24,000 nucleotides of DNA from Clostridiales bacterium (lineage in GTDB: Bacteria > Bacillota > Clostridia > Oscillospirales > Oscillospiraceae), in the NCBI GenBank assembly GCA_012719745.1, contig JAAXZS010000189.1:2480-26479 (forward strand), in the 5' to 3' direction. A model generated the notes under the pieces. That model was not told the DNA's origin. It did not search any database and was given only the letters and a program-made list of their open reading frames with translations. Below are positions 8,218-21,535 of this stretch, one piece after another; position 1 is the stretch's first letter, and the number at the start of each line of letters is the position of its first letter. The position numbers and the translations under genes were made by a program.

Positions 8218-8279
8218 AAAAAAGCATTATTTTGAAGCCATACGATGCAGATGGCAAAGAAAAGCAGGTGAGGCAAATC

Positions 8280-11200
8280 ATGAATCCGCAAAAACGCATA
8301 CTGGTCGTGGACGATCAGCCGATCAACCGAAAGATCCTGTTTCGGTTTTTATCCAATGCCTACACTGTATTGGAGGCGGAAAACGGCCGCCAGGCACTGG
8401 ATATTCTCAATACACAGGGGGAAACTCTGTCGGCTGTTCTACTGGATCTGGTGATGCCGGATCTGGACGGATACGATGTGCTCAAAACCATGCAGCGTGA
8501 CCCCACGCTCTCGGCCATCCCGGTGATTGTCGTCTCCCAGTCGGACAAGGGGGAAACGGAGGCGAAGGCACTGCAGCTGGGGGCCCGGGACTTTATTTCC
8601 AAGCCCTATAATCCCGGTGTGCTGCGTCGCCGGCTTGCCAATCTGATCGAACTCCATGAATCAAATCTCTGCATCGGGCGCATTGAGCATGATACGCTGA
8701 CTGGGACCTATAATAAAGATGCCTTCTGCCGCCGTGCGGCAGAAATGATCTCTGAGCATCCCACCCATTATTTCCTGCTGGTGGCTACGGACATCGAACG
8801 ATTTAAGCTCATCAACGACAGCTTTGGAACGGCGGAGGGCGATAAGCTTCTGCACTATGTGGGGCAGCGACTGCAGGCGGAAATGCAGAAGGTGGGCGGT
8901 ATTTGCGCGCGCCACAGCGCCGACCATTTTGTGGCGCTGGTACCGACATCAGCGGATGATGGCGGTCTTCATTCGGTAATAAAGCGGGCCGAGGAAGATA
9001 TAAACGGTTACCCGCTGAAGATGCATATAACGCTGAAATTCGGAATTTACCCCGTCAATGATTTGCGCATACCGGTGTCGCTGATGTGCGACCGGGCGCT
9101 TCTGGCGTCCGACAGCGCCAAAAACCGGTATGACCATCCCTGCGCCTACTATGATGATACCATCCGTCAGAAGCTGCTGCTGGAGCAGCAGATTACCGAT
9201 GAAATGAAACGGGCCCTTAAGAGGGGGCAGTTTCAGGTTTACCTCCAGCCGAAGTACGATCTGCTCAGTGAACGCATTGCCGGGGCGGAGGCACTGGTTC
9301 GCTGGATGCATCCCAAGCTGGGCTTTCTCGCCCCGGACGCGTTTATTCCTCTTTTTGAAAAAAACGGCTTTATTACGGAGCTTGACAACTATGTCTGGGA
9401 TCAGACCTGCCGCCTGATTGCCGACTGGATTGCCCGGGGAGGCAAATATGTACCGGTGTCCGTCAATGTATCCCGTCGTGATATTTATCGGGAAAATTTG
9501 CCGGAACTATTTTCGGCGCTGGTAAAAAAGTACGGTCTTCAACCGTGTCAGCTGCATCTGGAGATTACGGAGACGGCCTATGCGGAAAATCCTGCTCAGC
9601 TGATTTCCGTGGTAAGTCGGCTAAAAAAACTGGGCTTTACCATTGAAATGGACGATTTTGGCAGCGGATATTCCTCACTGAACATGCTCTCGGAGCTGCC
9701 GATCGACGTGCTGAAGCTGGATATGCACCTGATCCAGCGGGAGACCGGCAAGAAGAATGACCGCAATATTCTCAGCTTCATCATTAGTCTGGCCAAATGG
9801 ATGAACCTGCTGGTGGTGGCAGAGGGCGTGGAGACCCGGCAACAGGTGGAGGTGCTGCGAAATCTGGACTGCAATTATGTGCAGGGATATTACTATGCAA
9901 AGCCCATGCCGGCGGAGAAATTTACCTACATTTTGCTCCATTCCAATTTGGCCGATCCTATTTCCGCCGACCGGGAGACCAATGAAACAGATGTGACGCT
10001 GCCGATACACGAACGCGGTGAAATCATGGTGATTGCCGACAAAGCCTGCTCGGATCGGTCGGCGCTGGCAGAGTATTTTCAAAATATTTATACGGTGGTG
10101 GAGACGGAAAACACAGAGGACGCTTACGCCTGCATTCAGAAATATTTCGATCAGGTGTCCGTTTTACTGCTGGATACAAGCATTGCCGGACAGGACAGGG
10201 ACAGCTTCATCAAAAAGCTGCGGGCCAATGCGCTCTACAGAGATATTCCCGTGATCCTGACTGGCTGCGGCGATGAGCGGCAGGCTTTTGCACAGGGAGC
10301 CAGCGAATTCCTGACAAAACCCTATCACATGGACATTGCCCTGCATCGGGTGCAGAATGTAACAGCGCACAACACCATTCAGCTGCTGGAGCGGGAAAAA
10401 CAAATGCTCAGCCGGATCAGGACCCTCTCTCAGGAGGTCAAAATGGACGCGATGACAGGGCTTCTGAACCGAACGGAAATGGAGAACCAGATTGAGGAGC
10501 TCCTTTCCCGGGAGAAGCACGGCATATTTATGACCCTTGACATCGACAATTTCAAAACCATTAATGATACTTACGGCCATGGAAAAGGGGACACGGTGCT
10601 GCTTCTTGTGACAGAGACATTGCGACAGCATACCCAGTCTGGGGCGCTTCTGTGCCGCATGGGCGGCGATGAGTTTGCCGTGTTCATTCCCGCTCGTCTG
10701 ACCAGAACCAAAATAGAAAAAATGGCGGCTCGACTGTTAAATGCGCTTGAGCTGCACGTGGAAAATATCAACCTTTCCTGTTCTGTGGGCATCAGCGTAG
10801 CGCCGGAGAACGGGGAGAGCTATAAGGAGTTGTACCACAACGCGGATATGGCGCTGCTGACAGCCAAGCGGCTGGGCAAAAATCAGTTTCAGTTTTATGA
10901 TGGTCTCCAGGAGCTGCCCGATCGGATACTGTATCGCAATCTGGACTGGATTCTGGACGAAGCCAGCGACGCCGTGTATATCTGCGATGCTGACAGCTAT
11001 GAGCTGTTTTATGTCAATGATGTGGTTTCCACATGGACGGGCAAATCCAAAAAGCAATGCATGGGAAAACCGTGTTACCGGGCCATTTGGGGTCTGGATC
11101 ATCCCTGCAATCACTGCGTGCCTCTGGAGAAGATGGAGCGCAGCTACTGCGAGCATGAGTTTGAAGACGCAGGGCAGGGTCGGCACTTTATTACAAAGGG

Positions 11201-13238
11201 AAAGCTGGTGGACTGGGGCGACAGAAAGGCCCGCATCCAGTATGTACAGGATAACACCCACCGGGCAAAGCTGTTGCATCAGATGGAGGAGCTGTCGGAG
11301 GACAGACGCCTGTTGCTGGATCTGCTGCCCGGCGGCCTGCTGCGCTATCAGGCGTATACCCACAGCTTCAGCTTTGTCAGTGAAAGCACGCTTCACATGC
11401 TGGGTTATACCCGCCCGGAATTTGAAGCGCAGTTCAGCGGCTCCTATGACAATTTCATTTATGAAGCGGACCGCGGCATTGCCCCCGCCCTCCGCGGTGA
11501 ATATGCCAACCGGACCTATAGGATCCGACGTCGGGACGGATCACTGGCCAGTGTGTACGAGACGGCCTATTTTCACCCCACACCCACGGGCGGCGAGACC
11601 TATGTCATGCTCACCGATGTGACGGAGCAGCATGCGGTGGAGGAAGAAAACCGCCGCCTGACAGAACGTCTGGAGGCTGTAGTCAATAACGTACCGGGTG
11701 GCGTCTGCCTCTATCAGTCCGATGGGCGGACAATCACCCCATTGCTGACCAGCCGGGAATACCTCAATTTGATGGGGCTGACGGATGAGGAAAATAGACA
11801 GGCGTTTGCCACCAATGATTTCTCTCTGGTGACGCCGGAGTACCGGGCGGATTTTACACAAGGACTGCGGGCCGCCTTTGCTGACGGCGGGTATCTGCAT
11901 ATGGTCTATCGCTGCCGTCACGCCAAAACCGGCAAGCTGTTCTGGGTTTCTCTCACTGGCAGCGTGGTGCCGCAGGAGGATGGTTCCCGTTTGGGCTTCG
12001 TGGCCTATGCCGATGTAACGCAGCAGATGCGGCGGGAGGAAAAACTTGAAGAGGTCAGCCGCGTCCTGCAGGAGCAGCGAGATATGCTCTCGGCCGCCAT
12101 GGCCCACAGCGGAATTCTCAGCTGGGAATACAATTTTGAAACCAAAACGGCGGAGTTGTGCGGCCATACCCAGCAGCTCGACACCATGCCGGAGCGCCTT
12201 TCTCCTATGCCGGAAGCGTGGCTTGCATCGGGAAAAATGGATGCCTCCTACAATGACGCTTATTGCGCAATGCTCCACTCCCTGCGGAACAACGAAAGCG
12301 CGTCCCTGAAGGTGGAGCTGCTCCGTCCCGGGGAAAAGACCAAAGCCTGGTATAAAATGATGTATACGGTAATCCGCCGTAATCAGGCCGGAGAGCCGCT
12401 TTTGGCCATCGGGACGGCCATTGACATCAGCGAGCAGAAACTGGCGGAGCAGCGGTACGACGAAGAAGTCTCGTTTCTGGCGTCCCTCAGCTCCAAACTG
12501 GTTTCGGCCTTTCGCATTGATCTGACCACGGGCCTTGTGGAAGAAGCTCACTCAGCGCTGTATCTGGTGGAAGATCCGCTGCACTTTGTCTTCAGTGACG
12601 ATAGCCTTACGGACCTGTGCCGGCGTTTCATCCCCAATGAGGAGGAGCGCCGCCGCTGCCGGGAGATGATGATTCCGTCCCGTCTGTTGAAGGATTTTGA
12701 AACGGGCATTACCGAGCAAACCTGTGAATATGCTGTGCGGCTTAAAAACGGTCGTCTCTGCTGGATATCCATGCAGCTTAAGATGATGCGCAAGCCGGGT
12801 ACAGAGAAAGTCACGGGCTTTTTCAGCTTCTGGAATATTCATCAGGAAAAAATGCTGGAAAAGGTGGTTCAGGCGCTGATTAAAACGGAATACGATGCCA
12901 TCTGTACCATTGACGCCGCCACCGGCTATCCCAGCATTTTTCACGGCGATATATTCCAGCGGATTCGCGACAGGCAAAGAGCGCTGGGCGATTCGGAGGC
13001 GGGGGTTGTGGCCGATCTGCAAGCGACCTGCTACCCACCCGACCTGGAACGTGCCGTTGCGGAGACAAAGATCCAATTTGTCCGTCAGGCGCTTTCCCAC
13101 ACTGCCGTCCATACGGTGACATACCGGGAAGATACCGGCAAGGGTCTTCGTTCCAAACGGGTGGAATACAGATATCTGGATGAGTCGCACACCGCCATTC
13201 TTTGTACCATCCAGACGCATGAGGAGCCTTTTCTCTGA
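8280..13238 (+). CDS. Multidomain c-di-GMP signalling protein: REC - degenerate GGDEF - EAL - REC - GGDEF - C-terminal PAS array (1652 aa)
   Basis: Start ATG 8280 has an AGGTGAGG RBS; the track start 8232 is rejected.
- REC1, ~8292-8645: ILVVDDQ, acceptor Asp in LLDLVMPD at 8445-8447, SKPY Lys.
- GGDEF1, ~8688-9165: SADHF (8916-8930) replaces GGDEF.
- EAL, ~9190-9930: EALVRW at 9288, EITE, DDFGSGYSSL, KLD, AEGVET, QGYYYAKP all present.
- REC2, ~10020-10365: LLLDTS Asp at 10173, LTG, TKPY.
- GGDEF2, ~10444-10905: intact GGDEF at 10662-10676.
- Remainder, ~10940-13230: four clear PAS-like modules plus about two more divergent ones. Confidence 0.9.
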   Translation: MNPQKRILVVDDQPINRKILFRFLSNAYTVLEAENGRQALDILNTQGETLSAVLLDLVMPDLDGYDVLKTMQRDPTLSAIPVIVVSQSDKGETEAKALQLGARDFISKPYNPGVLRRRLANLIELHESNLCIGRIEHDTLTGTYNKDAFCRRAAEMISEHPTHYFLLVATDIERFKLINDSFGTAEGDKLLHYVGQRLQAEMQKVGGICARHSADHFVALVPTSADDGGLHSVIKRAEEDINGYPLKMHITLKFGIYPVNDLRIPVSLMCDRALLASDSAKNRYDHPCAYYDDTIRQKLLLEQQITDEMKRALKRGQFQVYLQPKYDLLSERIAGAEALVRWMHPKLGFLAPDAFIPLFEKNGFITELDNYVWDQTCRLIADWIARGGKYVPVSVNVSRRDIYRENLPELFSALVKKYGLQPCQLHLEITETAYAENPAQLISVVSRLKKLGFTIEMDDFGSGYSSLNMLSELPIDVLKLDMHLIQRETGKKNDRNILSFIISLAKWMNLLVVAEGVETRQQVEVLRNLDCNYVQGYYYAKPMPAEKFTYILLHSNLADPISADRETNETDVTLPIHERGEIMVIADKACSDRSALAEYFQNIYTVVETENTEDAYACIQKYFDQVSVLLLDTSIAGQDRDSFIKKLRANALYRDIPVILTGCGDERQAFAQGASEFLTKPYHMDIALHRVQNVTAHNTIQLLEREKQMLSRIRTLSQEVKMDAMTGLLNRTEMENQIEELLSREKHGIFMTLDIDNFKTINDTYGHGKGDTVLLLVTETLRQHTQSGALLCRMGGDEFAVFIPARLTRTKIEKMAARLLNALELHVENINLSCSVGISVAPENGESYKELYHNADMALLTAKRLGKNQFQFYDGLQELPDRILYRNLDWILDEASDAVYICDADSYELFYVNDVVSTWTGKSKKQCMGKPCYRAIWGLDHPCNHCVPLEKMERSYCEHEFEDAGQGRHFITKGKLVDWGDRKARIQYVQDNTHRAKLLHQMEELSEDRRLLLDLLPGGLLRYQAYTHSFSFVSESTLHMLGYTRPEFEAQFSGSYDNFIYEADRGIAPALRGEYANRTYRIRRRDGSLASVYETAYFHPTPTGGETYVMLTDVTEQHAVEEENRRLTERLEAVVNNVPGGVCLYQSDGRTITPLLTSREYLNLMGLTDEENRQAFATNDFSLVTPEYRADFTQGLRAAFADGGYLHMVYRCRHAKTGKLFWVSLTGSVVPQEDGSRLGFVAYADVTQQMRREEKLEEVSRVLQEQRDMLSAAMAHSGILSWEYNFETKTAELCGHTQQLDTMPERLSPMPEAWLASGKMDASYNDAYCAMLHSLRNNESASLKVELLRPGEKTKAWYKMMYTVIRRNQAGEPLLAIGTAIDISEQKLAEQRYDEEVSFLASLSSKLVSAFRIDLTTGLVEEAHSALYLVEDPLHFVFSDDSLTDLCRRFIPNEEERRRCREMMIPSRLLKDFETGITEQTCEYAVRLKNGRLCWISMQLKMMRKPGTEKVTGFFSFWNIHQEKMLEKVVQALIKTEYDAICTIDAATGYPSIFHGDIFQRIRDRQRALGDSEAGVVADLQATCYPPDLERAVAETKIQFVRQALSHTAVHTVTYREDTGKGLRSKRVEYRYLDESHTAILCTIQTHEEPFL

Positions 13239-13575: not shown

Positions 13576-14121
13576 ATGCTGCCATTTATCCTGCTGCCGC
13601 TTTTATGGGCGCACATTCGCCGGCATCCACTCCGGCCGCTGCTGAAGGCGTGGGATCTGCTGCCCCTGCTGGCCATAGAACTGATCCATGTTTTTTTTCA
13701 GATCAGCTGCTTTGCCGGTAATACCCGCTGGATCGGGCTGGGGCGCTATTTGCAGTGGGCGCTTCTTCTTTCGCTTCTCGTCCCCATTCTGCGCCGTCGG
13801 TTGTATAAGCCGGCGCTGTGGGGAGCCGGTTGTACGATAGTGGGCAGCCTGCTCAACCGTGTGGTGATGGCGGCCAACGGCGGACAGATGCCCGTCTGGC
13901 CGACGCTCTCTCAGTGGACGGGCTACTGCACCCGGGAAACGCTTTCTCTTGGCCTTGATAAGGTGCATATCCTGATGACCGAGGGTGCCAGACTGACTTT
14001 TTTAGGTGACTACATTGATTTGGGTTGGTGCATCCTTAGCCCCGGCGATGTGCTGAACCATCTGTTTGTTTCCATTATTGTGTATTATACGGTACTGTCC
14101 TTTGAGCGGACAGAAAAATAA
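13576..14121 (+). CDS. DUF5317-like integral membrane protein
   Basis: Internal ATG 13576 with a GGGGGA RBS is preferred; the track start 13417 lies upstream of the promoter. 181 aa and multi-TM. The motifs ANGGQMPVW and ILSPGDVL match my recollection of the clostridial DUF5317 family (NGGKMPV ... S-x-GD-hL). Not verifiable here. Confidence 0.6.
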   Translation: MLPFILLPLLWAHIRRHPLRPLLKAWDLLPLLAIELIHVFFQISCFAGNTRWIGLGRYLQWALLLSLLVPILRRRLYKPALWGAGCTIVGSLLNRVVMAANGGQMPVWPTLSQWTGYCTRETLSLGLDKVHILMTEGARLTFLGDYIDLGWCILSPGDVLNHLFVSIIVYYTVLSFERTEK

Positions 14122-14146: not shown

Positions 14147-14701
14147 ATGGAATATCTGCTTCTCTTTTTAACGGACGGCATTATGGGCTATTTTTTACAG
14201 GGCGTGGGATACCTGCTGGGTGTATTTGCCAGCGTCAAACGCAAAATCACCTTCCGCGAGTTTGTTCCCATGGCCGCCCTTTACGGGCTGGTGGCCTTTG
14301 GCATCCGCAAGATCAATGTGATCAGTTTCGGCTTTCACACAATTCTCATCATGATTGCCATCATCCTTCTGGCGGTTTTACTGCTTAAGACGCCCACCTT
14401 CATGACGGTGGTGGGAATCCTCATCTCCTCGGTGGCCATTCTGGTGGCGGAGGTTATCAATATGGCTGTTCTATCCGGTATTTTTGGCTATCCGGCGATG
14501 ATGGCGATCTTGGCTGGTGACGGTACCATTTACGGTGAGATCAATAAGGCTGTTGCCGGCATTCCCACCAACCTGATCCTGCTCATCATCATGTTCATTA
14601 CGTATAAGCTTCGGATGAAGCCTAAGAAGGAGCATGGTTCACATGGAGCAATTGGCACACAGGTGGGCACAAAAAATCGGGACGACACTGGGAACGGATG
14701 A
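14147..14701 (+). CDS. Hypothetical polytopic membrane protein (about 5 TM helices, no soluble domain)
   Basis: ATG 14147 lies 9 nt after GGGA; ATG 14138 is an alternative. Hydrophobic segments include FLQGVGYLLGVFA, FVPMAALYGLVAFGI, FHTILIMIAIILLAVLLL, FMTVVGILISSVAILVAEVINMAVL and IPTNLILLIIMFITY. The basic/Gly-rich tail overlaps the agrB start by 59 nt. No family recognised. Confidence 0.55.
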   Translation: MEYLLLFLTDGIMGYFLQGVGYLLGVFASVKRKITFREFVPMAALYGLVAFGIRKINVISFGFHTILIMIAIILLAVLLLKTPTFMTVVGILISSVAILVAEVINMAVLSGIFGYPAMMAILAGDGTIYGEINKAVAGIPTNLILLIIMFITYKLRMKPKKEHGSHGAIGTQVGTKNRDDTGNG

Positions 14702-15275
14702 AGAGCGCATTGCGGTCATGGCCTACGGCCTGACAGCGCTTTTGCAGTTGGTTCTTATTTTCCTGGCGGCTGCGCTGCTGGGATGGGCCCTGGGCTTTTT
14801 TGGAGAAAGCATGATCGTGTTCTTCTCTGTGGGCTTTTTACGCCGCCTTATTGGAGGCGCTCATGCCGGCAGCTTCAACGGCTGTCTGGTGGTGAGTATT
14901 TTCTGTATTGGCTTTTTTTCGGCACTGGCGCACTATGTACTGCCGCTGTGTCCCTTCTGGGTTTTGGGTGGAGCGTCACTTGCCATTTATCTGACGGCAG
15001 TTGTCCTGATTGCCCGGCTTGCGCCGGTGGACTCACCCAATAAACCTGTCCGCTCATCTGAAAAGCGGCGGCGGCTGCGCCGCGGTGCTTTTGGCGTGAT
15101 GGTTGCTTTTGTATTGTTGACGGCGGCGGCCCTCTTATGGCAAACCCGGGGTGGAGACTGTGCCCGGTATATCTGGGCGCTTAACCTGTCTGTTTTGTGG
15201 CAGACGACCATGCTGACCGGGTGTGGCAGCCGATTGATTCGCATAGTGGATCTCCGATTTAAGAGACCATTATAA
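14643..15275 (+). CDS. agrB: Accessory gene regulator protein B (AgrB), AgrD-processing membrane endopeptidase
   Basis: The N-terminus LAHRWAQKIG...DEERIAVMAYGLTALLQLVLIFL is AgrB-like. The hallmark LRRLIGGAHAGSFNGC has His (14862-14864) and Cys (14883-14885) spaced 7 residues apart, like the catalytic H77/C84 of S. aureus AgrB. Four or more further TM helices and a basic loop (KRRRLRR) follow. AAGGAG at 14627-14632 favours ATG 14643 over 14634. Confidence 0.85.
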   Translation: MEQLAHRWAQKIGTTLGTDEERIAVMAYGLTALLQLVLIFLAAALLGWALGFFGESMIVFFSVGFLRRLIGGAHAGSFNGCLVVSIFCIGFFSALAHYVLPLCPFWVLGGASLAIYLTAVVLIARLAPVDSPNKPVRSSEKRRRLRRGAFGVMVAFVLLTAAALLWQTRGGDCARYIWALNLSVLWQTTMLTGCGSRLIRIVDLRFKRPL

Positions 15276-15299
15276 TAAAAGGGGAAGGGAGGAAGATTC

Positions 15300-15425
15300 A
15301 TGAAGAAGAAGGCATTGGCGGCTCTGTCCGTTGTAGCGACCCTTGTTGCTACGCTCGCGGCAACCTCTGCTTGTGTCTGGTGGTTTTACCAGCCGGAAGA
15401 GCCGGAATCTCTGAAGAACCTGTGA
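15300..15425 (+). CDS. agrD: AgrD-type autoinducing peptide precursor (41 aa); predicted thiolactone core CVWWF
   Basis: Not in the ORF track, presumably because it is too short. GGGAGGA (15287-15293) lies 6 nt before ATG 15300, which is 24 nt after the agrB stop. Hand translation gives MKKKALAALSVVATLVATLAATSACVWWFYQPEEPESLKNL with stop TGA at 15423-15425. It has a basic/amphipathic leader, a single Cys (15372-15374) and an acidic QPEEPxSL tail. This closely parallels C. perfringens AgrD as I remember it (...TSACLWFTHQPEEPKSLRDE). Confidence 0.8.
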   Translation: MKKKALAALSVVATLVATLAATSACVWWFYQPEEPESLKNL

Positions 15426-15527
15426 TATGAGGAGACGGCTTTGTGAGGGCAGACGAAGTACGGCTTGCCGGACGGCTGGCCTTATGGAGTCTGCTCTCAC
15501 AATTCTTTTATACAAAGGGGGTGCGGT

Positions 15528-16409
15528 ATGCTGACAGAAAAAGAAAAGCAATCCCGTTTTAATAATATGTTCTTCACGCTGAAGATCATGGCACTGTTTT
15601 TTTGCACAGCGCCACTGTTTCAGTACTATTTTGGGGACAGTGCCAATCATATGCTGGTAAATCTGAACATTGGCATGGTCGTCATTTTTCTCTGTATTGT
15701 AGTCATTGTGGCTTTCATGTGGATTGTGCTCAACTCCCAGTTCCGTCGGATCAAGGCCGGTCACTATCTGGAGATTGCCATTTTTTATGTGGCATGCCTG
15801 TCGGCTATTTTATACAGTGGCTCTTATCGGAGCTATTATAAAGGCATGTTTATCTTCATGATTGTGGTATATACCATGGATATGGGTATCCGCACCGGCT
15901 TTTTCGTAGCCAGTATTAGTGCGCTCACCATTGTGACGCTGGATCTGACACTCTATCACGACGGCGGCGTCAATGCCTATTTTCAGGCGGATCTGGCGCT
16001 TTCAGCCATGTTTTTCGTGGTGGCATGGGTGCTGGGCTTTTATGTCAAGCTGGAAAACGAGCATATTGAAAACCTGAAAAAAACAGCCAATATGGATGGC
16101 CTCACGGGTCTTTACAACCACCGCTATTTTTACGATACCATCACCGCTCTTTTTGAGAACAATACTCAAAAGCCACTGTCTTTTATTATGCTGGATCTGG
16201 ATCATTTTAAGATCTATAATGACATGTTCGGCCATCAAAAGGGCGATGAGGTGCTGCGGCAGGTTTCCCGCCTGATTGGGGAATCGGCCCGGACGGGAGA
16301 TGTGGTATGCCGTTACAACGCAGACCGAGGCCTTGGCTATGGCGGATCGGTTGCGCCAGTCCATCAGCGATTATGCCTTTACGGGACAGGAGATGCTTCC
16401 CAATCATAA
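15528..16409 (+). CDS. Fragment 1 of a disrupted gene: 6-TM sensor domain plus N-terminal two-thirds of a GGDEF domain (frame lost at ~16316)
   Basis: ATG 15528 has an AAGGGGG RBS; the track start 15465 is rejected. About 190 aa carry six hydrophobic helices. Then come DGLTGLYNHRYF, MLDLDHFKIYNDMFGHQKGDEVLRQV and GDVVCRY. After RY the frame reads non-homologous NADRGLGYGGS... to a stop at 16409. Confidence 0.8.
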   Translation: MLTEKEKQSRFNNMFFTLKIMALFFCTAPLFQYYFGDSANHMLVNLNIGMVVIFLCIVVIVAFMWIVLNSQFRRIKAGHYLEIAIFYVACLSAILYSGSYRSYYKGMFIFMIVVYTMDMGIRTGFFVASISALTIVTLDLTLYHDGGVNAYFQADLALSAMFFVVAWVLGFYVKLENEHIENLKKTANMDGLTGLYNHRYFYDTITALFENNTQKPLSFIMLDLDHFKIYNDMFGHQKGDEVLRQVSRLIGESARTGDVVCRYNADRGLGYGGSVAPVHQRLCLYGTGDASQS

Positions 16410-17139
16410 CCTGACGGTGTCCATTGGTGTGGCGGAGCGGCTGGGACCGGAGGACACGGTACAGGAACTCATTGAACGGGCAGATGCGGCGCTGTACCGG
16501 GCTAAATTTTTTCGCAAGAACCGTGTGGAACTGTATTCCACCGTTTTCGATCAGTTTACCCATCTGGATGTGTCCACGGACAACAGCATTACCTCAGTGA
16601 AAGCGCTGATCACCATCATCAACTCCCGCGACCACTATACTTACAGCCATACGGAACGTGTGGTACGCTACTGTGATGTTTTCGCCGATTACTGTCATCT
16701 GTCCCAGCAGGATAAGGTACACCTGGTCTATGCGGCCTACCTCCACGACATCGGAAAGATCAATGTCAAGAAAGAGACGCTGATTTCGGAGAAGCGGCTG
16801 ACGGAGCAGGAGTGGGAAGAGGTCAAGCGTCATCCTGTGGACAGTGCGGATATTGTCAGTCAGATTCCGGAATTGCAAGAGGTAGTGCCCATTGTGATGC
16901 AGCACCACGAACGCTTCGACGGAACCGGTTATCCTAACGGCCTTCGGGGAGAGGAAATCTGCCGTCTGGCGCGGATGCTGTCTTTGGCGGACAGCTTTGA
17001 CGCCATGACCGCCAAACGTCCCTATCAACCGAGCCGTACCTTCGAGGATGCCTTTGCCGAGATTCGGCGCTGTTCCGGCACACAGTTTGATCCTGCACTC
17101 TCCGAAAGCTTTATTCAGGCCGTGTACAGCGACTTATAA
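16276..17139 (+). CDS. Fragment 2 of the same disrupted gene: C-terminal third of the GGDEF domain plus an intact HD-GYP phosphodiesterase domain (homology starts ~16315, +1 frame)
   Basis: TTQTEALAMADRLRQSI...LTVSIGVAE...RADAALYRAKFFRKNRV is the GGDEF C-terminal part. The HD-GYP signatures YSHTERVVRY, YLHDIGKI and HHERFDGTGYPNGL follow. There is no convincing RBS or start of its own; the track start is a TTG. Confidence 0.8.
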   Translation: MGNRPGREMWYAVTTQTEALAMADRLRQSISDYAFTGQEMLPNHNLTVSIGVAERLGPEDTVQELIERADAALYRAKFFRKNRVELYSTVFDQFTHLDVSTDNSITSVKALITIINSRDHYTYSHTERVVRYCDVFADYCHLSQQDKVHLVYAAYLHDIGKINVKKETLISEKRLTEQEWEEVKRHPVDSADIVSQIPELQEVVPIVMQHHERFDGTGYPNGLRGEEICRLARMLSLADSFDAMTAKRPYQPSRTFEDAFAEIRRCSGTQFDPALSESFIQAVYSDL

Positions 17140-21349: not shown

Positions 21350-21378
21350 TTGACATTTTCGTCACTTCTCGATATAAT
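21350..21378 (+). promoter_or_regulatory. Consensus sigma-A promoter of the rplJ-rplL unit
   Basis: TTGACA (21350-21355), exactly 17 nt, TATAAT (21373-21378). Confidence 0.65.
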
Positions 21379-21384
21379 CAATGA

Positions 21385-21535
21385 TGCGTTCCAAAGACAG
21401 CAGGTGACGGAAGTCGTAAATCCTGCCGAGGATGGCAAATCGTACTGATTGCTTTGAACAGTCCTTGTGTCTTTGAACACAGGGACTGTTTTCCTTTTTT
21501 TGAACGCACCGACAAATCTCATGGAGGTGAAATCC
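21385..21535 (+). ncRNA. Probable ribosomal protein L10 leader (autoregulatory 5' UTR of rplJL)
   Basis: A ~150-nt transcribed leader lies between a consensus promoter and rplJ and contains an intrinsic-terminator-like attenuator. Position and architecture match the Firmicute L10 leader. I could not verify the conserved kink-turn/rRNA-mimic motif by eye. Confidence 0.5.
21457..21501 (+). terminator. Attenuator hairpin plus U-run inside the rplJ leader
   Basis: AACAGTCCTTGTGT / ACACAGGGACTGTT form a 14-bp stem with one G-U pair and loop CTTTGA, followed by TTCCTTTTTTT. Confidence 0.65.

Follow-up and report, generated by a model that had tools for sequence, protein, structure and literature searches.

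The contig JAAXZS010000189.1 of a Clostridiales bacterium (assembly GCA_012719745.1) carries a small gene, agrD, for the precursor of an autoinducing peptide (AIP), which lies within a cassette of five genes. In this study, 24,000 nucleotides of this contig (positions 2,480 to 26,479 of the forward strand) were analysed; this whole stretch is called the window, and all coordinates refer to it. The agrD gene occupies 15300-15425 on the forward strand, as do all features of the cassette. An earlier, sequence-only reading had placed its ATG at 15300, 24 nucleotides past the agrB stop codon and behind a GGGAGGA ribosome-binding site, and each of these elements was found in the sequence: the stop codon TAA of the agrB homologue is at 15273-15275, and the ribosome-binding site is at 15287-15293, 6 nucleotides before the ATG. 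The translation given in that reading codon by codon was also exact, and the product is MKKKALAALSVVATLVATLAATSACVWWFYQPEEPESLKNL (41 amino acids). It is laid out as a leader (codons 1-24), a core, CVWWF (codons 25-29), and a follower, YQPEEPESLKNL (codons 30-41). The five genes encode, in order, a membrane protein of the DUF5317 family, a small membrane protein, AgrB, AgrD and a protein in which a six-transmembrane (6TM) domain precedes GGDEF and HD-GYP domains. The assignment of 15300-15425 to agrD was based on the translation of the open reading frame (ORF), its match to NCBIfam family TIGR04223, the family alignment and the identity to a GenBank entry, and we regard it as very probable that this ORF is the agrD of a C. 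perfringens-type agr cassette. The core of the earlier reading, a clostridial-type AgrD directly after AgrB, was thus supported.

The sequence-only reading had proposed a profile search against the AgrD family and an examination of the conservation of the cysteine as checks on the assignment. In the hidden Markov model (HMM) search, TIGR04223 matched the product far over the cut-off (56.3 bits against 19; E = 2.2e-15), and the match was full length, with residues 3-40 aligned on positions 1-38 of the 38-position model. The experimentally studied AgrD of C. perfringens reached 53.0 bits on the same model. The staphylococcal AgrD family, Pfam PF05931, gave 14.1 bits against its threshold of 22.7, and the peptide therefore belongs to the clostridial and not the staphylococcal branch. 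A first search returned 35 relatives, and a profile built from those 35 retrieved at least 1065, many of which are named "cyclic lactone autoinducer peptide" by NCBI. Among the 131 short relatives tallied, Cys25 was invariant, and the frame [AS][TS]SAC, four residues, Tyr and QPEEP was kept in all 131. The four ring residues behind the cysteine were hypervariable, with 102 distinct cores in these 131 relatives and 60 in 80 metagenome loci, all 80 of which gave a ring in the frame C-x4-[YH]QPEEP. Compared with the related loci L006 and L001 (loci and contigs other than the window are given as L numbers), agrD showed 5 synonymous and 1 nonsynonymous codon differences (ring V26I) and 12 synonymous and 7 nonsynonymous differences, respectively. 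This mostly synonymous pattern indicates that the ORF is under purifying selection.

Among the hallmarks of AgrD, as listed in the earlier reading, the KKK N-terminus, the hydrophobic stretch, the single cysteine (C25) and the acidic tail were all present, the tail YQPEEPESLKNL holding 3 acidic residues and 1 basic residue. The leader resembles a Sec signal peptide more than an amphipathic helix and ends in an invariant A-T-S-A; its mean Kyte-Doolittle hydropathy is 1.93 and its helical hydrophobic moment is 0.61. The corresponding moment of what we take to be the S. aureus AgrD sequence is 1.89. The description of the gene as hidden did not hold, since the identical 41-residue protein is GenBank NLU25489.1, 'MAG: cyclic lactone autoinducer peptide [Clostridiales bacterium]'. 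The identical peptide is encoded on seven metagenome contigs, and the 41-residue gene has been called on at least 6 of those 7. As one of more than 1000 AgrDs in a large family, and with an annotation already in place, the agrD gene is unremarkable. The nearest protein cluster of its product is named Oscillibacter sp., and the host of the cassette is an Oscillibacter-like member of Clostridia.

The first cassette gene (13576-14121) encodes the DUF5317 membrane protein (Pfam PF17248, 7.3e-20), and its start was placed by the 181-residue gene called in L012 and L013. The second (14147-14701) encodes a multi-pass membrane protein of 184 amino acids, which matched no Pfam or NCBIfam family, and its 3' end overlaps the start of agrB by 59 nucleotides. 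AgrB (14643-15275; Pfam PF04647, 109.8 bits, 1.3e-31) is a membrane peptidase, which cuts off the tail of AgrD and closes the ring. Its motif GGxH(x6)C reads GGAHAGSFNGC here, and His74 and Cys81 were invariant in the seven cassettes aligned; we take these two residues to be catalytic, as in S. aureus. A scan of genome contigs with AgrB as the query gave one distant locus, at 41% identity. The same five genes in the same order, within unrelated flanks, were present in every lineage inspected singly (n = 8: the window with L012, L001, L018, L020, L021, L025, L027 and L031), including C. estertheticum, a 6.5-Mb Clostridium genome and C. perfringens. In C. perfringens (L027 and L028), the order runs DUF5317 (188 amino acids), a 153-residue protein, AgrB (214), AgrD (44) and a GGDEF+HD_5 protein (563).

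The window locus is orthologous to this C. perfringens agr cassette. By gene order, the DUF5317 gene corresponds to CPE1563 and the small membrane protein gene to CPE1562; the C. perfringens gene that follows agrD is CPE1560 on the same basis. The C. perfringens system CpAL (operon CPE1563-CPE1562-agrB-agrD) therefore shares with the window its five-gene order and domain content, the AgrD frame TSAC-x4-[H/Y]QPEEPxSL, a hairpin after agrD and the lack of agrC or agrA nearby. The two differ in the ring (CVWWF in the window, CLWFT in C. perfringens) and in the residue after it, which is Tyr instead of His. They also differ in the host, which is Oscillibacter-like and not a Clostridium, in protein sequence (22-51% identity) and in the c-di-GMP gene, which is broken in the window. 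In C. perfringens, a four-gene operon ending at agrD was shown by reverse transcription PCR, and CPE1563 and CPE1562 were co-transcribed with agrBD and needed for complementation (PMC2706048).

A census of 80 further metagenome loci, made with HMMs built from seven cassettes, extended these observations; its denominators are the loci with enough flank. AgrB lay directly upstream of agrD in 68/69, the small membrane protein was present in 53/55 and DUF5317 in 41/43. A 6TM domain followed agrD directly in 62/64, and the GGDEF/HD-GYP catalytic part was found in 42/46, or in 44/46 if two split copies are counted. With the split copies included, each neighbour was present in 95-99% of the loci with enough flank. 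In L049 and L060, the GGDEF/HD-GYP gene is broken up over more than one ORF, and L049 has its small-protein gene and agrB split too. Such splits may stem from errors in assembly or from repeated decay of the cassette. Two loci carry this AgrD subtype in other settings, L074 without the usual neighbours and with an AgrB homologue downstream, and L083 with AgrB as the sole usual neighbour. No known RNA or riboswitch of Rfam was found in the cassette.

The features of the leader raise another reading, in which the ORF has no part in quorum sensing and encodes a small lipoprotein or a secreted peptide; a chance ORF was considered as well. The resemblance of the leader to a Sec signal peptide, its low hydrophobic moment, a lipobox-like TSAC and the name 'putative lipoprotein' that UniRef gives to one C. 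perfringens entry would fit the lipoprotein. The match to TIGR04223 far over the cut-off, the near-constant AgrB directly upstream and the conserved acidic QPEEP follower speak against both, as does the C. perfringens orthologue, which is an AIP precursor with experimental support (PMC2706048, PMC7492741). On these four grounds, the chance ORF and the lipoprotein were rejected, and we consider either to be extremely improbable.

With the ORF taken as an AIP precursor, the mature signal can be predicted from C. perfringens, the AIP of which has the five-residue ring CLWFT as its active form (PMC7492741, PMC12312760, PMC12828898). The C. perfringens AgrD sequence on which the sequence-only reading drew (...TSACLWFTHQPEEPKSL...) was confirmed as exact, and the CLWFT ring that it named is the published one (PMC12312760, PMC7492741). 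The spacing from the cysteine to the conserved proline is 10 in the window AgrD, as in CLWFT-HQPEEP of C. perfringens. This shared spacing indicates that the ring should be Cys-Val-Trp-Trp-Phe (15372-15386), with the AgrB cut between F29 and Y30, and the hypervariability of the four residues behind the cysteine marks the same segment. The spacing presumably also matches that of S. aureus AgrD-I. On the N-terminal side, the native clostridial AIPs detected so far have no tail (PMC8251862). This fact, together with the signal-peptide-like leader, leads to the expectation that cleavage occurs directly before Cys25. By analogy with these systems, AgrB would cut after Phe29 and join Phe29 to the thiol of Cys25, the leader would be removed just before Cys25, and the released signal would be a tail-less five-residue ring, CVWWF. 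This would first be a thiolactone and may then rearrange to a lactam, as such tail-less thiolactones pass through an S-to-N acyl shift into homodetic lactams of the same mass (PMC8251862). The sequence-only reading had proposed a CVWWF ring, possibly with a short N-terminal tail; the analogy with C. perfringens favours the ring, and the tail is not expected.

Among the closest known systems are the tail-less cyclopeptides Rc-AIP1 of R. cellulolyticum and the AIP of C. acetobutylicum described by Molloy et al. in 2021, which likewise have a core that starts with cysteine directly after the leader, and with which the window AgrD shares its predicted route, from a thiolactone made by AgrB through an S-to-N acyl shift to a homodetic ring (PMC8251862). 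Their rings have six residues, whereas that of the window is predicted to have five, and the window differs further in the c-di-GMP enzyme next to its agrD. C. acetobutylicum, unlike the window, pairs agrBD with agrCA (PMC12312760). The calculated [M+H]+ of cyclic CVWWF is 722.3119 for both the thiolactone and the lactam. The mass check suggested earlier, a loss of 18 Da relative to the linear peptide, would therefore detect the peptide and not its form.

Several points weigh against this prediction of the mature signal. The ring size and the lack of a tail are set by analogy, and other clostridia use rings of six residues, CVLVTL in C. acetobutylicum and CWFWSY in R. cellulolyticum (PMC12312760, PMC8251862). 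Systems also vary in their active form: R. cellulolyticum uses the lactam as its genuine signal (PMC8251862), and a short-lived thiolactone is active in L. monocytogenes according to the account in PMC12828898, which cites PMC11297923. The mature signal might then be a six-residue ring with Tyr30 (CVWWFY, calculated [M+H]+ 885.3752 in cyclic form) or a ring with a short N-terminal tail, such as SA-CVWWF. The tail-less six-residue rings just named and the invariance of Tyr30 in all 131 relatives tallied are compatible with the larger ring, and a tailed peptide of eight residues, 8R, triggers a response in some C. perfringens strains (PMC7492741). Nevertheless, the cysteine-to-proline spacing is that of C. 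perfringens, where the five-residue ring is the likely natural form (PMC7492741, PMC12828898). Moreover, the variation ends exactly after four residues, which suggests that Tyr30 is part of the conserved tail recognised by AgrB, and the detected clostridial AIPs are uniformly tail-less. We therefore regard the larger or tailed forms as unlikely and retain the tail-less CVWWF ring as the predicted signal.

The sequence-only reading had also proposed that a W-W-F ring would be a distinct pheromone specificity. CVWWF was absent from the roughly 210 relatives sampled, but the ring is no outlier and is one of very many variants. Trp stands at ring position 3 in 88 of the 102 distinct cores, and W-W rings are common. 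The ring CIWWF is carried by L006 and L007, contigs that are 96-97% identical to the window in DNA.

Directly 3' of the agrD stop codon, the window has a long hairpin (15442-15512) with arms at 15442-15454 and 15489-15501, followed by AUUCUUUUAUA; with its U-rich tail, it resembles a terminator. The RNA segment 15420-15535 folded at -45.2 kcal/mol (z = -4.3), and none of 200 shuffled sequences was as stable. Eight other loci were folded, C. perfringens L027 among them, and each had a hairpin at the same position; in six of the eight, a U-rich or A/U-rich tract followed it. Its position fits an operon that ends at agrD. Simple consensus scans for promoters and terminators performed at chance level, and the terminator scan missed this hairpin.

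Behind the hairpin lies the gene for the 6TM-GGDEF-HD-GYP protein (15528-17139), which encodes 548 amino acids in intact orthologues such as that of L012, at 9319-10965. Its N-terminal six-helix membrane domain (15528-16088) is the proposed AIP sensor. In the window, the gene is disrupted and split into the ORFs 15465-16409 and 16276-17139, each of which holds half a GGDEF domain. Seven related contigs carry the intact gene; five of them are 98.3-99.1% identical to the window and the other two 96-97%. Against all seven, the window shows a single 35-nucleotide deletion between 16316 and 16317. This deletion removes G-GEEF-TVIYPD and shifts the frame, leaving a membrane stub of 293 amino acids. 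The intact copies read CGTTAC, then GGCGGCGAAGAATTTACGGTGATTTATCCCGATAC, then AACGCAG at the junction, with a TAC microhomology at the ends of the deletion. Contig L017, which is 100% identical to the window, stops exactly at the deletion junction, and this suggests that the intact and deleted alleles coexist in the sample of L017, JGI 3300022230. Every intact copy of the gene retains the motifs RYGG[DE]EF and HHE..DG.GYP.

The AlphaFold2 model of the 6TM domain comprised six helices with a predicted local distance difference test score (pLDDT) of 90.4. The domain matched no Pfam family, and a Foldseek search of the PDB returned no match. A word-indexed search gave one fragment only, and an exhaustive HMMER search was needed; it returned 106 cluster representatives. 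Among the 43 long representatives, 23 carried GGDEF (19 of these also HD_5, the HD-GYP domain) and 20 carried HisKA and HATPase. Since the same domain is fused to either kind of output, it is a modular sensor domain. The staphylococcal protein GdpS (NF047872) likewise has an N-terminal polytopic membrane domain followed by GGDEF, and its model aligns over part of the membrane region. The cassette protein scored 73-113 bits on that model, far below the cut-off of 400, and it differs from GdpS in adding HD-GYP, in keeping GG[DE]EF in intact copies and in its tight linkage to agrBD.

Homologues of the small membrane protein (153 amino acids) are encoded 31 nucleotides upstream of 6TM sensors at two loci with no nearby agrBD, L022 (5509-7860) and L029 (493-2647). 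The sensor of L022 (P0068) is a PAS histidine kinase, and that of L029 (P0115) is a GGDEF/HD-GYP enzyme. The homology was recognised through the clostridial versions of the small protein (blastp 1e-14 to 3e-33); the version of the window lineage matched weakly, at 3e-4 at best, and its direct comparison with the L022 upstream protein was not significant. The adjoining small protein and 6TM sensor at these loci indicate that the two form a conserved pair in their own right.

Comparisons of closely related contigs located the variation within the cassette. Four contig pairs with differing rings, L067/L062, L018/L088, L070/L102 and L110/L047, are otherwise 85-100% identical. In each of them, a divergent block spans agrB and agrD and continues into the 6TM domain, and the catalytic domains are spared. 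In L067/L062 and L018/L088, where the alignment extends far enough, the small membrane protein belongs to the block too. The end of the block falls on the 6TM/GGDEF junction for L018/L088 and L070/L102 and inside the 6TM domain for L110/L047. The contigs L067 (ring CIWSH) and L062 (ring CFWAH) are 99-100% identical over about 3.6 kb upstream and about 4 kb downstream of a block at about 3600-5470 in L067. From the 3' terminus of DUF5317 over the genes for the small protein, AgrB and AgrD to roughly nucleotide 280 of the sensor gene, the identity falls to 47-84%; it then climbs through 91-97% in what remains of the 6TM region and in the first part of GGDEF. At the protein level, the sensors are 57-83% identical over residues 1-180 and 90-100% identical beyond. 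The overall identity is 98% for the catalytic part, 73% for the 6TM domain, 64% for AgrB and 57% for the small protein, which is the most divergent.

The same relation was seen across the family. The mean 6TM distance was 0.18 (two pairs), 0.29, 0.39, 0.47 and 0.46 for zero to four ring differences, with catalytic distances of 0.15-0.30. In two lineages that share the ring CIWWF, the 6TM distance was 0.18 and the catalytic distance 0.19. The partial Mantel r of the 6TM domain was 0.44 (p = 0.001); the small protein reached 0.38, AgrB 0.26 and DUF5317 0.23. As in an agr-type receptor, the sensor domain thus co-diversifies with AgrB and AgrD and the output domain is conserved, although linkage may contribute. 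In S. aureus, the agr groups are defined by a hypervariable block that comprises agrB, agrD and the sensor half of agrC (PMC10482373). The match between this arrangement and the block in the four contig pairs indicates that the 6TM domain is probably an AIP sensor.

In many clostridia, agrBD occurs without agrCA; C. perfringens, C. difficile (agr1) and C. botulinum are examples. To our knowledge, the sensing of the peptides in these agrCA-less clostridia has been an open question since 2009. The AgrD ORF by itself is routine, and the context of the cassette is what matters. With few exceptions, the gene next after an AgrD of the C. perfringens type encodes a membrane GGDEF/HD-GYP enzyme. From the comparative patterns described above, we consider it slightly more probable than not that the peptide is sensed by the 6TM domain of this downstream protein, with c-di-GMP as the output. 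In that case, the cells would register their density as a shift in c-di-GMP and not only through a histidine kinase, and the small membrane protein encoded upstream of agrB would probably work with the 6TM sensor. If this sensor model is right, the window strain is predicted to make the signal but to have lost the output of the c-di-GMP enzyme, because the 35-nucleotide deletion runs through the GGEEF site of its sensor gene. A broader reading combines these elements, with the 6TM domain, probably aided by the small membrane protein, as the cognate receptor in C. perfringens-type cassettes, a direct wiring to c-di-GMP in place of a two-component system, pherotypes like those of S. aureus and a signal-blind window strain; the balance for and against this combination appears to us to be even.

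The alternative assigns the sensing of the AgrD signal solely to a VirS-type histidine kinase whose gene lies elsewhere, as in the current model for C. perfringens; the GGDEF/HD-GYP gene would be a conserved neighbour with a different stimulus, and its variable 6TM region would hitch-hike with the diversifying agrBD segment. Several observations count in this direction and against a 6TM receptor. In C. perfringens, the published binding evidence favours the kinase VirS as the receptor, with AIP binding to VirS and VirS-dependent responses (PMC7492741), and the model of a 2025 review likewise leads from the AIP to VirS (PMC12828898). The terminator-like hairpin stands between agrD and the sensor gene. 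The 6TM domain lies only 0.1-0.6 kb from agrD, and the divergent block could in part be DNA that hitch-hikes with agrBD. In L033 and L038, with a single residue of difference between their rings, the 6TM domain shows no extra divergence over the catalytic part. Furthermore, pairs of sensor and small-protein relatives exist without agrBD. The one kinase-fused 6TM relative examined (P0068 in L022) and the GGDEF/HD-GYP relative P0115 (L029) do not adjoin agrBD, and the 6TM domain is therefore not exclusively tied to agr.

Other observations are harder to reconcile with a conserved neighbour that takes no part in sensing. The 6TM gene directly follows this AgrD subtype in nearly all census loci and in all eight lineages inspected singly, across flanks that are all different. 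In four pairs, the divergent block stops inside the 6TM domain or where this domain ends (about half-way through it in L067/L062 at the nucleotide level) and never far into the catalytic domains, and the divergence of the 6TM domain scales with the number of ring differences. The 24-kb window departs from a canonical agrBDCA arrangement, with no HisKA/HATPase sensor kinase and no LytTR gene among its Pfam-scanned ORFs. In C. perfringens itself, some Agr effects reportedly do not depend on VirS/VirR (PMC4963840), and an AIP-binding band of about 75 kDa was left unexplained (PMC7492741). On this evidence, sensing by a distant VirS-type kinase alone is a possibility to be taken seriously, and we hold it to be doubtful rather than improbable, with the 6TM domain retained as our preferred candidate for the receptor.

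The comparison with S. aureus agrBDCA shows how far the likeness extends. The biosynthetic logic of AgrB and AgrD is shared, and both systems have a hypervariable agrB, agrD and membrane sensor domain of the next gene with a conserved cytoplasmic part (PMC10482373). In contrast to S. aureus, the AgrD leader of the window is signal-peptide-like rather than amphipathic and no tail is expected on the signal. Moreover, the gene after agrD encodes a GGDEF/HD-GYP enzyme and not the AgrC kinase, AgrA is lacking, and two extra membrane-protein genes precede agrB.

Within the literature outside subscription journals, no paper was found that joins agrBD to an adjacent GGDEF/HD-GYP gene; the search returned only transcriptional links in C. 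difficile and general reviews. The 2025 review of C. perfringens makes no mention of c-di-GMP or of the gene after agrD, and 'DUF5317' is named in no paper of the literature searched. As far as could be searched in this literature, the proposal of a receptor at the level of the cassette is new. If true, it would link peptide quorum sensing with c-di-GMP, the messenger of the switch between biofilm and motility, and it leads one to expect pherotypes among Clostridia of the gut and the environment.

Immediately upstream of the cassette, 8232-13238 encodes a cytoplasmic protein of 1668 amino acids with REC, GGDEF, EAL, a second GGDEF and PAS domains, which makes the locus dense in c-di-GMP genes. 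Its orthologue is split into 505 and 1145 amino acids in L012 and is intact, with 1652 amino acids, in L013. At the other end of the upstream region, a tRNA-Arg(CCG) gene (950-1026) is followed by a tyrosine-integrase ORF on the reverse strand (1186-1821) and by the C-terminal part of a large serine recombinase (1852-2844). The GC content drops to 44-47% in this region, and 950-2844 resembles what is left of a mobile element that had integrated at the tRNA. Downstream of the cassette, a ribosomal protein L10 leader (21373-21501; Rfam RF00557, 69.2 bits) lies in an L33-SecE-NusG-L11 region, an ordinary housekeeping context.

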